From contig JBHLMI010000024.1 in the NCBI GenBank assembly GCA_048938295.1, positions 1 through 32,000 on the forward strand: a DNA stretch of 32,000 nucleotides. The letters run 5' to 3'. A program made the position numbers and the translations under genes. Position 1 is the stretch's first letter. The number at the start of each line of letters is the position of its first letter. Below are positions 25,003-26,286 of the stretch, piece after piece. This DNA is from Promethearchaeota archaeon. Its GTDB lineage: Archaea; Asgardarchaeota; Hermodarchaeia; Hermodarchaeales; Hermodarchaeaceae. The notes under the pieces were generated by a model. That model had not been told where the DNA came from, did not search any database, and saw only the letters and a program-made list of their open reading frames with translations.

Positions 25003-26286
25003 GTGCAGGATACCGTGTGCTGTGGTTGTTCTGTGGTCTGTGATGACGTCGCGGTAGCGGTGAAGAAAGCAAGTCTGCAATCCCTTGGGTTATGTCGGTT
25101 AGGCCATGAGTACTGTAATTCTGTTTTTAAGAAAAGCCGACTCGCTACATCTCTGCACAAAAATGAGAAAGGAAAACAGCTACCAATACCAATCAAAGAT
25201 GCCATTCAACACGCGACCAGCCTCCTTAGAGATAGTGCAAAACCACTGTTTCTGGGCTGGTCCAACAGCACACAAGAAGCAATCCAAACTGGTTTGCAAC
25301 TAGCCCAAAACCAAAATGGGGTCTTCGATAGTACCGCGAGTTTTGAATATGGACAAATGCTTGGAGCCAAACTTAAGGGTGGTGAATCAGACCAGGTAAG
25401 TCTAGATGATGTTCGCGACTTTGCAGATCATATCGTCTATTGGGGCGTCAATCCAGCAGAAAGCCACCACCGTCACGCTAGCCGCTTCACCGTCTTTCCC
25501 AAAGGTAAGAACATCCCTGAAGGACGAGAAAGTCGCATAGTATCCGTCCTCGATGTTCGTAAAACGGAATCAATGGGGTTAGCGAACCATCAGCTTATTC
25601 TTTCTCCAATTACAGGAGATGTGGAATTCCTCCAGACATTAATCGCAGAACTGAAAGGAACAAAGCAACCGTTAGCGGAGAAAGTCGGGGGTGTACCCAC
25701 AATTGAGTTCCTCAGTTTCGCGAAGCAGCTCCGCGAAGCCGAGACCATCGCGTTATTTTATGGAAACGGGCTGATACACTCCACTCATTCATCCCAAAGC
25801 TTACTCCTTCTGAAGCAACTTGAAAAAACCCTGAACCGCGGGAAACGCCATTGTTGGACTCTCCCAATGGTTGCCTATTGTAATACTATTGGTTCAGTGA
25901 AGGTAAGCCTTGACAGTTCTAACCTGCCTTTTTCCATTGACTTCAGTTCAAATCCCCCACAGTCCGTTGCGTCAATCTCTAAGAGCTTAACAAAGGGCGA
26001 GTTCGATAGCGTAATGGTTACTAACTGGGATGCGTTAAGTCTGCTTCCTAAACCAATGGCGCAAGCCATCTCAACACTCCCGTTGATCTCCTTTTCCACC
26101 CATCCGACACTAACTACGAAAAAATCCACCATTGTCTTTCCCACAGCCTTGACTGGGGCAGAGACCCAAGGAACTACCTACCGAATGGATGGTGCAGCTG
26201 TTCTCTTAAAGCCCTTCAAAGAACCTCCAAAAGGAGTGCTCACCGAAGAGGAACTCCTTAAGCAACTTCTTACGGCACTACGATGA
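25003..26286 (+). CDS. fwdB: FwdB-like subunit lacking the metal-ligand and catalytic residues
   Basis: Collinear with FwdB over the full length (CxxCxxxCDD...C, GWS, ADxIVYWGxNP, GTTYRMDG), but TASVCHGP reads TASFEYGQ and PMRGHYN reads PMVAYCN. Confidence 0.85.
   Translation: MQDTVCCGCSVVCDDVAVAVKKASLQSLGLCRLGHEYCNSVFKKSRLATSLHKNEKGKQLPIPIKDAIQHATSLLRDSAKPLFLGWSNSTQEAIQTGLQLAQNQNGVFDSTASFEYGQMLGAKLKGGESDQVSLDDVRDFADHIVYWGVNPAESHHRHASRFTVFPKGKNIPEGRESRIVSVLDVRKTESMGLANHQLILSPITGDVEFLQTLIAELKGTKQPLAEKVGGVPTIEFLSFAKQLREAETIALFYGNGLIHSTHSSQSLLLLKQLEKTLNRGKRHCWTLPMVAYCNTIGSVKVSLDSSNLPFSIDFSSNPPQSVASISKSLTKGEFDSVMVTNWDALSLLPKPMAQAISTLPLISFSTHPTLTTKKSTIVFPTALTGAETQGTTYRMDGAAVLLKPFKEPPKGVLTEEELLKQLLTALR

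Follow-up and report, generated by a model that had tools for sequence, protein, structure and literature searches.

A Glu-Tyr-type FwdB paralog encoded in an HdrA-polyferredoxin module of an Asgard archaeon

Comparison of the FwdB-like protein with described systems

In the Hdr-Fmd/Fwd supercomplexes of methanogens, the low-potential electrons of HdrA are passed via the FmdF/FwdF polyferredoxin to FwdBD (PMC13580544). A second FwdBD-FwdFG set, co-located with HdrABC, was reported by Kohtz et al. from the cultured Thermoproteota methanogen Ca. Methanonezhaarchaeum YNP3N (PMC12700198, 2025). This "Fwd-Hdr" set exists apart from the FwdABCD of the pathway; formate oxidation, with transfer of the electrons into Hdr, was proposed as its function (PMC12700198). 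In the type II HdrA-FdhB clusters of anaerobic methanotrophic archaea (ANME-2/3) and Methanosarcinales, a non-catalytic "Molybdop" protein without the ligand Cys was assigned a structural role within a bifurcating Hdr complex (PMC12054007, 2025). It is related to FdhA/FdhG/FhcB, is paired with FdhB, and its Pro/Phe residues are predicted to block the cofactor site (PMC12054007). In FhcB, the pterin motifs, the Fe-S domain and FwdD have been lost, Cys118 is replaced by Ser62, and loops clash with and fill the pterin site (PDB 6S6Y; PMC6926001). Here, we describe an FwdB-like protein encoded at positions 25003-26286 of a 32,000-nt stretch of a Promethearchaeota archaeon genome (contig JBHLMI010000024.1; the whole stretch is referred to as the window). 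The name "FwdB2" is coined here for the FwdB paralog lineage of Hdr-polyferredoxin modules, to which this protein belongs. The features of the gene are as follows:

25003..26286, + strand: FwdB-like paralog ("FwdB2", Glu-Tyr type), 427 aa, assigned by full-length FwdB homology and fold
25018..25095, + strand: codons of Cys6-x2-Cys9-x3-Cys13...Cys31, the retained N-terminal [4Fe-4S] motif, assigned by the canonical Cys columns
25345..25350, + strand: Glu115-Tyr116 codons, aligned with Cys118 (the W/Mo ligand) and His119 of FwdB, assigned by the phmmer alignment
25870..25881, + strand: Val290-Ala291-Tyr292-Cys293 codons, at the position of Arg288-Gly-His290-Tyr of FwdB, assigned by the phmmer alignment

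The open reading frame (ORF) consists of 427 unbroken codons with a GTG start, and its orthologs share the start position, reading MQDTVCCGCS. No internal stops were found; therefore, there is no in-frame TGA and no candidate for selenocysteine. In a phmmer search against PDB sequences, Methanothermobacter wolfeii FwdB (5T5I_B) matched the protein from end to end with an E-value of 5.2e-53 (query 1-426, chain 4-425), as did four further FwdB/FmdB chains, and the identity with FwdB was about 30%. The first motif, DSTASF-E115-Y116-GQ, was aligned under DNTASV-C118-H119-GP of 5T5I_B and the second, PM-V290-A-Y292-CN, under PM-R288-G-H290-YN. The catalytic residues Cys118, His119, Arg288 and His290 are thus replaced by Glu115, Tyr116, Val290 and Tyr292, respectively, and the four columns that hold the Fe-S cysteines in canonical FwdB are filled by Cys6, Cys9, Cys13 and Cys31. 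The initial annotation, made from the nucleotide sequence, had described an intact 427-aa ORF collinear with FwdB, without in-frame TGA, with the N-terminal C-x2-C-x3-C...C kept and all four catalytic residues substituted, and the alignment is in agreement on each point. Cys293, which had been pointed out as a new feature, gives way to Ala or Ser in 8 of 58 orthologs, and the genus g2 has Ser at this position. As the residue is not conserved among the orthologs, Cys293 was ruled out as a replacement ligand.

The score of the protein with TIGR03129 (FwdB, NCBIfam) was 294.2 bits, which is below the curated equivalog cut-off of 327.8 bits. Some members of the Glu-Tyr clade scored just above the cut-off, at 331-344 bits. 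The copy of the Asgard family f14, which has Cys-His and Ala for Arg, reached 523 bits, a score as high as that of a canonical FwdB, so that Arg-less paralogs are not told apart by the curated model. No significant Pfam match was obtained for the protein (PF00384, E 0.058), and since canonical FwdB itself scored only 27 bits, Pfam does not discriminate either.

The AlphaFold2 model, built from 53 homologs, had a pLDDT of 95.5. Its superposition resulted in TM scores of 0.90-0.93 with FwdB/FmdB chains, about 0.77 with FdhH and 0.65 with FhcB. The supercomplex structure 7BKB was among both the sequence and the fold matches; 7Z7R_G, 8OH5_C and 9BOV_A, which we take to be examples of NuoG/Nqo3 or StnC/NfnC-type cofactor-less MopB proteins, were among the fold matches. 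NuoG/Nqo3 and the bifurcating StnC/NfnC-type subunits carry cofactor-less MopB domains in electron-transfer and bifurcating complexes, without molybdopterin chemistry. They have fused C-terminal domains and degenerate motifs, whereas the FwdB-like protein is free-standing, keeps its motifs and has a cap subunit of its own.

The closest resemblance is to FwdB/FmdB (5T5I_B, 8RJA_B, 7BKB_H). The FwdB-like protein is collinear with these over its full length at about 30% identity and TM scores of 0.91-0.93, and shares with them the N-terminal [4Fe-4S] motif and the MopB pterin motifs; its FwdD-type cap is likewise a separate protein, and partners of the FwdF/FwdG type are encoded close by. In contrast to FwdB/FmdB, the four catalytic residues are replaced, the TIGR03129 score is below the cut-off, no fwdA or fwdC lies alongside, the protein falls in a separate clade, and a canonical copy coexists in the genome. 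With the Fwd-Hdr set of Ca. Methanonezhaarchaeum, compared by its description, the locus has in common a duplicated FwdBD-type pair with FwdF and FwdG near Hdr genes. However, that set includes hdrBC, whereas the Asgard module is without hdrBC, stands beside cdh and has lost Cys-His. Similarly to the Molybdop of ANME and Methanosarcinales, the FwdB-like gene adjoins an HdrA gene (hdrA-mvhD) and its product has Glu in place of the ligand Cys; by description, it is set apart in being derived from FwdB, in having FwdG-, FwdF- and FwdD-like partners and in keeping the pterin motifs. FhcB, too, is related to FwdB, lacks the catalytic Cys, His and Arg, and has a scaffold role. The statement of the initial annotation that FhcB is a dead FwdB which lost its Fe-S cluster and has no FwdF/G partners corresponds to the published structure (PMC6926001). 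In contrast to FhcB, neither the Fe-S motif nor the pterin motifs have been lost from the FwdB-like protein, an FwdD-like gene is present, and the TM score of the model to 6S6Y was only 0.65.

Phylogeny, distribution and selection of the paralog lineage

The phylogenetic tree was calculated from 56 sequences with IQ-TREE (LG+C20), and a FastTree calculation was in agreement. Nineteen canonical FwdBs were split from 37 Arg-less paralogs with an SH-aLRT (Shimodaira-Hasegawa-like approximate likelihood ratio test) support of 97. Within the paralogs, the sister group of the Glu-Tyr clade was a clade whose ligand site reads Gly/Ala-x (SH-aLRT 99), and this pair was nested among Cys-His paralogs of Thermoproteota and other Asgard lineages (SH-aLRT 99). 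The Arg is absent throughout the paralog clade. This topology indicates that the FwdB-like gene belongs to an old paralog lineage in which Arg288 was lost first and Cys-His later in some branches. The FwdB2 paralogs of Asgard and Thermoproteota archaea form a monophyletic lineage of their own, outside the CO2-fixing FwdABCD enzyme. By alignment and tree, as proposed in the initial annotation, the protein was placed among the Arg-less paralogs and apart from canonical FwdB. The uniqueness implied there was overstated, as the protein represents one branch of a widespread paralog lineage which lost Arg288 long ago.

A search of a 5.8-billion-protein set resulted in about 58 orthologs with 51-100% identity, all of which have E-Y at the ligand position. 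The second motif of these orthologs reads LPM[VIF][ATS..][YLH][CAS]N. Positions 290-293 thus differ within the Glu-Tyr clade (V/I/F, A/T/S, Y/L/H and C/A/S, respectively), and the conservation of VAYC, which the initial annotation had proposed to check, was not observed. The orthologs were labelled as Promethearchaeota, Hermod-, Hod- and Thorarchaeota, i.e., as Asgard archaea. Among 400 species genomes of the phylum, matches with at least 51% identity were confined to a single family, f1. A match was found in all 18 other genomes of f1; 17 of the matches were full-length and the one in G107 was a fragment at a contig end. A second, canonical-type match was scored in 15 of these 18 genomes.

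In other Asgard families, a second FwdB-like gene likewise occurs beside the canonical one, with different residues at both sites. C-H at the ligand site is combined with A/I-G-H at the second site in families f13, f14, f26 and f28 and with A-E-N in f5. The ligand site reads C-Q in f4, S-T in f15, Y-K in f17 and G/A-x in f31. An exhaustive search of representatives yielded 834 family members at E <=0.001. In the best 150 of these 834, the four cysteines were kept in nearly all, and Cys-His/Arg-His was absent in most. Seven proteins (P0089, P0093, P0097, P0108, P0114, P0120 and P0126) are about 570-606 aa long and matched via their C-terminal 420 residues. They bear an N-terminal extension of about 150 residues and may be fusions of the FwdD-FwdB type.

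The selection on the FwdB-like gene is purifying but relaxed. The pairwise dN/dS (ratio of non-synonymous to synonymous substitution rates) of the closest gene pairs was 0.11-0.12 at a dS of about 1. In the 39 full-length members of the clade (mean identity 59%, range 50-100%), 77 of 427 columns (18%) were invariant. Among the invariant positions are E115 and Y116, C13 and C31 of the Fe-S motif, and many residues of a dense stretch spanning 147-196. The conservation of FEY under purifying selection, which the initial annotation had proposed to test, is in line with the invariance of E115-Y116 in all 39 members and with the dN/dS value. The same annotation had considered a decaying copy, marked by substitutions unique to this genome and a dN/dS near 1; Glu-Tyr is shared by the whole family and the dN/dS is about an order of magnitude lower.

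The identities to the window genome (G000) were determined for three proteins in five related genomes:

G094: canonical FwdB 95%, HdrA-MvhD 91%, FwdB-like protein 80%
G104: canonical FwdB 91%, HdrA-MvhD 82%, FwdB-like protein 69%
G095: canonical FwdB 90%, HdrA-MvhD 78%, FwdB-like protein 56%
G100: canonical FwdB 89%, HdrA-MvhD 76%, FwdB-like protein 61%
G108: canonical FwdB 76%, HdrA-MvhD 68%, FwdB-like protein 51%

In the same genome pairs, the FwdB-like protein diverged two to four times faster than canonical FwdB. These values indicate that the paralog is maintained, yet its constraint is clearly weaker than that on the catalytic copy and on its own redox partners.

The assembly of the window genome comprises 2.5 Mb in 66 contigs and is 91.6% complete. 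A canonical fwdD-fwdB pair was found on contig C4, its FwdB scoring 511 bits with TIGR03129 and containing SVCHGP and PLRGHFN. The genes fwdA (685 bits) and fwdC (232 bits) were detected on contigs C13 and C49, respectively, so that the canonical fwdABCD set, the search for which had been suggested in the initial annotation, is present on other contigs. McrA was not found in the assembly. The organism is a non-methanogenic archaeon with a Wood-Ljungdahl pathway of the tetrahydromethanopterin type.

Inactive MopB proteins, namely FhcB, NuoG and the ANME Molybdop, and an Hdr-linked second FwdBD (PMC12700198) are already known. The new points are that the paralogs make up a single lineage apart from canonical FwdB, that Glu-Tyr is a family-specific invariant state, sister to Gly/Ala-x and nested among Cys-His forms, that, unlike FhcB and the ANME Molybdop, the protein has retained its Fe-S domain and pterin motifs as well as a cap, and that it evolves several-fold faster than the catalytic copy. 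A literature search on FwdB-like paralogs, Asgard, HdrA and polyferredoxin did not return a description of this Asgard clade. When the metabolism of Asgard archaea is reconstructed, FwdB homologs are taken as evidence for CO2 reduction by the Wood-Ljungdahl pathway. In Asgard metagenome-assembled genomes, 83 FwdB homologs were counted by Wells et al., and the present paralogs were not separated (PMC10100899). FwdB2 is labelled as "formylmethanofuran dehydrogenase subunit B" in JGI and some NCBI records; it is most likely misannotated and is to be kept apart from real FwdB.

Possible roles of the Glu-Tyr-type protein

The replacement of Cys, His and Arg in the family of the window implies that Fwd/Fdh-type redox chemistry with CO2 or formate is not carried out by this protein. 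The account that we favour, with moderate confidence, is that the subunit has been retired from CO2/formate chemistry and is now an electron-transfer or scaffold part of an Hdr-type module. It is based on the resemblance of the module to the Hdr-linked FwdBD-FwdFG set and on the loss of the Cys-His needed for formate/CO2 chemistry. The sister clade, which runs the same module with Gly or Ala at the ligand position, also favours it. According to this account, the FwdB2 lineage would have lost the substrate-binding Arg early, and the family of the window would then have exchanged the ligand Cys and the adjacent His for Glu-Tyr. Jointly with the FwdD-like protein, the FwdB-like protein would survive as a [4Fe-4S]-bearing end piece or docking scaffold, and the two would link the iron-sulfur wire of FwdG and FwdF to HdrA, which performs flavin-based electron bifurcation. 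Its role in the putative complex with HdrA and the polyferredoxin would be non-catalytic. The bifurcating or confurcating HdrA-based module might exchange low-potential electrons with carbon monoxide dehydrogenase/acetyl-CoA synthase (CODH/ACS) or ferredoxin, and the CO2 reduction would be left to the canonical Fwd encoded elsewhere.

Several observations weigh against the retirement of the subunit, most of all against the loss of its cofactor. Glu115 and Tyr116 are invariant not only in the 39 full-length clade members but also in the 18 f1 genomes. No large indels relative to FwdB were seen in the phmmer alignment. Canonical FwdB has 75 columns with a conservation of at least 90%, and in 49 of these the FwdB-like protein has the same residue, including WGxNP...H...R, DxR, FxGxG and RMD, which are the classical MopB motifs for binding of the pterin dinucleotide. 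The most conserved block, residues 147-196 (WGVNPAESHHRH...DVRKTE), is located at these motifs. The FwdD-like cap is also retained and was predicted to bind the FwdB-like protein with an ipSAE of 0.93, compared with 0.17 for the best control; the runs agreed to at least 97% and the pLDDT of the partner was at least 89. Of 78 solved complexes, 51 attained the mark applied to such predictions, as did 2 of 108 mismatches. As FwdBD structures have been solved, the pass may reflect memory, and the prediction does not tell the FwdD of the module from canonical FwdD as the partner. The kept motifs, the cap and the lack of large indels are compatible with a pterin cofactor that is still bound. In addition, hdrB/C, fwdA/C, mvhA/G and fdhB/frhB were not found in the 32,000-nt window, i.e., hdrBC and an electron donor module are lacking there, and both the putative CODH/ACS link and the proposed direction of the electron flow are read from gene adjacency.

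The initial annotation had offered a cofactor-free structural or electron-terminal subunit as its first option and a new active site as its second. The first option in its broad sense, with no Fwd/Fdh-type CO2 chemistry and a role in electron transfer or as a scaffold, is favoured by the canonical Fwd elsewhere in the genome, the faster evolution and the Gly/Ala-x sister clade. The cofactor-free part of that option is a supposition; purifying selection has preserved both the motifs for pterin binding and the FwdD-like cap.

Other observations speak against a retained pterin. The radical changes are clustered at the metal site: C115E, H116Y, P118Q, G128E, R290V, G291A and H292Y. The FwdD-like protein is altered as well; in the Glu-Tyr clade it has LAR for TGR and GPWAF/Y for GPWAN, and in the Gly/Ala-x clade GPWAL for GPWAN. 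The GPWAN motif was kept in three of the four other paralog modules examined.

A doubtful but substantial alternative is that the tungsten or molybdenum bis-pyranopterin guanine dinucleotide cofactor is retained under the FwdD-like cap, with Glu115 as an unprecedented carboxylate ligand and Tyr116 and Tyr292 in the second sphere. The protein would then catalyse a redox reaction different from CO2/formate interconversion, or act as a pterin-based redox relay at the end of the HdrA-polyferredoxin wire. The invariance of Glu115-Tyr116, the pterin-binding motifs and FwdD-like cap conserved under purifying selection, and the FwdB-like fold (TM 0.91) without clashing insertions are in accordance with it. 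Wells et al. list MopB enzymes with an Asp ligand and also mention ligand-free ones such as AioA (PMC10100899). In contrast, Gly/Ala-x is found in the sister clade in an identical module and Ser-Thr or Tyr-Lys in further branches, the evolution of the protein is much faster than that of its catalytic paralog, positions 290-293 are variable within the clade, and neither the Asn of GPWAN nor the Gly of TGR has been kept in the FwdD-like protein. To our knowledge, no Glu-ligated member of the MopB family has been reported. A more specific form, in which a Glu115-ligated W/Mo-bis-pyranopterin is fed directly by the bifurcating HdrA and catalyses a low-potential reaction of unspecified kind tied to CODH/ACS, is improbable. 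If true, the Glu115-ligated cofactor would make the protein the first glutamate-ligated member of the dimethyl sulfoxide reductase (MopB) superfamily. The feature as such is real and conserved, and new chemistry at the metal site has a minority chance.

A working FwdB, or a second isoenzyme which converts CO2 to formyl-methanofuran with a ligand from another position, is disfavoured and very unlikely. The clade members above the TIGR03129 cut-off (331-344 bits) are named FwdB by the pipelines. However, the alignment is unambiguous and shows other residues in place of the catalytic Cys, His, Arg and His, Cys293 is not conserved, the canonical FwdABCD set is encoded elsewhere in the genome, and the module contains no fwdA or fwdC. 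A functionless, decaying duplicate would account for the divergence being faster than that of the canonical paralog and the neighbours, but is refuted by the selection data (dN/dS 0.11-0.12, 77 invariant columns including Fe-S cysteines), besides the conserved synteny, the matches in 18 of 18 f1 genomes, 17 of them full-length, and the roughly 58 metagenomic orthologs.

The subunit favoured here, retired from CO2/formate chemistry, would belong to a conserved Hdr-type module of HdrA-MvhD, FwdF-like, FwdG-like, FwdB2 and FwdD2 proteins without HdrBC, which is genetically tied to CODH/ACS. The module bears on how non-methanogenic Asgard and Thermoproteota archaea obtain or dispose of electrons of very low potential. 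The graded sites, from Cys-His without Arg to Glu-Tyr or Gly-x, may be regarded as a natural experiment in which a molybdo- or tungsto-enzyme is retired into a wiring or scaffold subunit.

Gene module and neighbouring genes

The following genes accompany the FwdB-like gene in the window:

24456..24968, + strand: Fe-S protein, 170 aa, with an N-terminal PF04060 (CdhE/RnfB-type) domain and a 2x[4Fe-4S] FwdG-like ferredoxin, assigned by family profiles
21881..24331, - strand: HdrA-MvhD fusion (HdrA2-type), 816 aa, NF040770 918 bits, FlpD/MvhD domain at residues 681-803
17140..18588, - strand: FwdF-like polyferredoxin, 482 aa, about 8 Cys cluster motifs, NF042909 (FwdF) 221 bits
16766..17143, + strand: FwdD-like Molydop_binding cap domain, 125 aa, with the altered motifs LAR for TGR and GPWAF for GPWAN, assigned by domain match
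27418..28221, + strand: CooC/ParA-type P-loop ATPase, a conserved downstream neighbour, assigned by family match
29555..30748, + strand: amidohydrolase, 397 aa, conserved in Glu-Tyr-type loci (74-85% identity), the N-terminal 60 residues resembling FwdA
31294..31998, + strand: 5' part of cdhA (CODH/ACS alpha subunit), followed by cdhBCD in orthologous loci

The Fe-S gene is located directly upstream of the FwdB-like gene and the two are probably co-transcribed; its start is uncertain, as the orthologs were called at 127-156 aa. The hdrA-mvhD gene is divergent from this pair and faces it. Synteny was studied in 16 related loci spanning all active-site types. The pair of the Fe-S and FwdB-like genes was present in 16 of 16 loci, the adjacent HdrA-MvhD and FwdF-like genes in 12, the FwdD-like gene in 10, and CdhA within about 10 kb in 9; fwdA or fwdC was found in none of the 16. 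These counts across the active-site types indicate that the shared function of the module is independent of Glu-Tyr. In L077, L078, L083 and L084 (families f14, f13, f17 and f15, respectively), the pair occurs without hdrA, fwdF or cdh nearby. Six loci with CCG domains (HdrB/D-like) were found elsewhere in the window genome.

The CooC/ParA-type ATPase is probably a Ni-insertion accessory of CODH. Two PEMT-like methyltransferases are also encoded downstream of the FwdB-like gene. The amidohydrolase lies three to four genes downstream in all the Glu-Tyr-type loci with a full module, and it is more conserved across loci (74-85%) than the FwdB-like protein itself. Its membership in the module is uncertain, and its role as a substitute of FwdA is unsupported, as just the generic N-terminal 60 residues matched TIGR03121.

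Two ORFs without a family match, 18657-20027 (-) and 20108-21805 (-), one of them with weak beta-propeller and zinc-ribbon matches, are located between the polyferredoxin and hdrA-mvhD genes. They were seen in this position in the Glu-Tyr-type loci only, and their counterparts are absent in the modules of the sister clade and of Thermoproteota. A CofC-like guanylyltransferase of the F420 biosynthesis family (15236-15913, -) lies just upstream of the FwdD-like gene together with rhomboid and MFS (major facilitator superfamily) genes, and is syntenic in L006.

No RNA runs were listed as covering 24456-26286 of the window; the listed runs were DNA runs of sediment metagenomes only. The promoter and terminator scan of the window gave a signal at the level of shuffled sequence, and no tRNA was found in the window with ARAGORN. 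A RuBisCO-like protein is encoded at 8587-9960 (-), downstream of pyruvate phosphate dikinase; its best match was the MtnW-type enolase model with 336 bits, and it scored below the cut-off of every model. Among the several HdrA paralogs of the family, the one at G104:C15:43212-45212 contains a single in-frame TGA and is a possible selenocysteine-containing HdrA.

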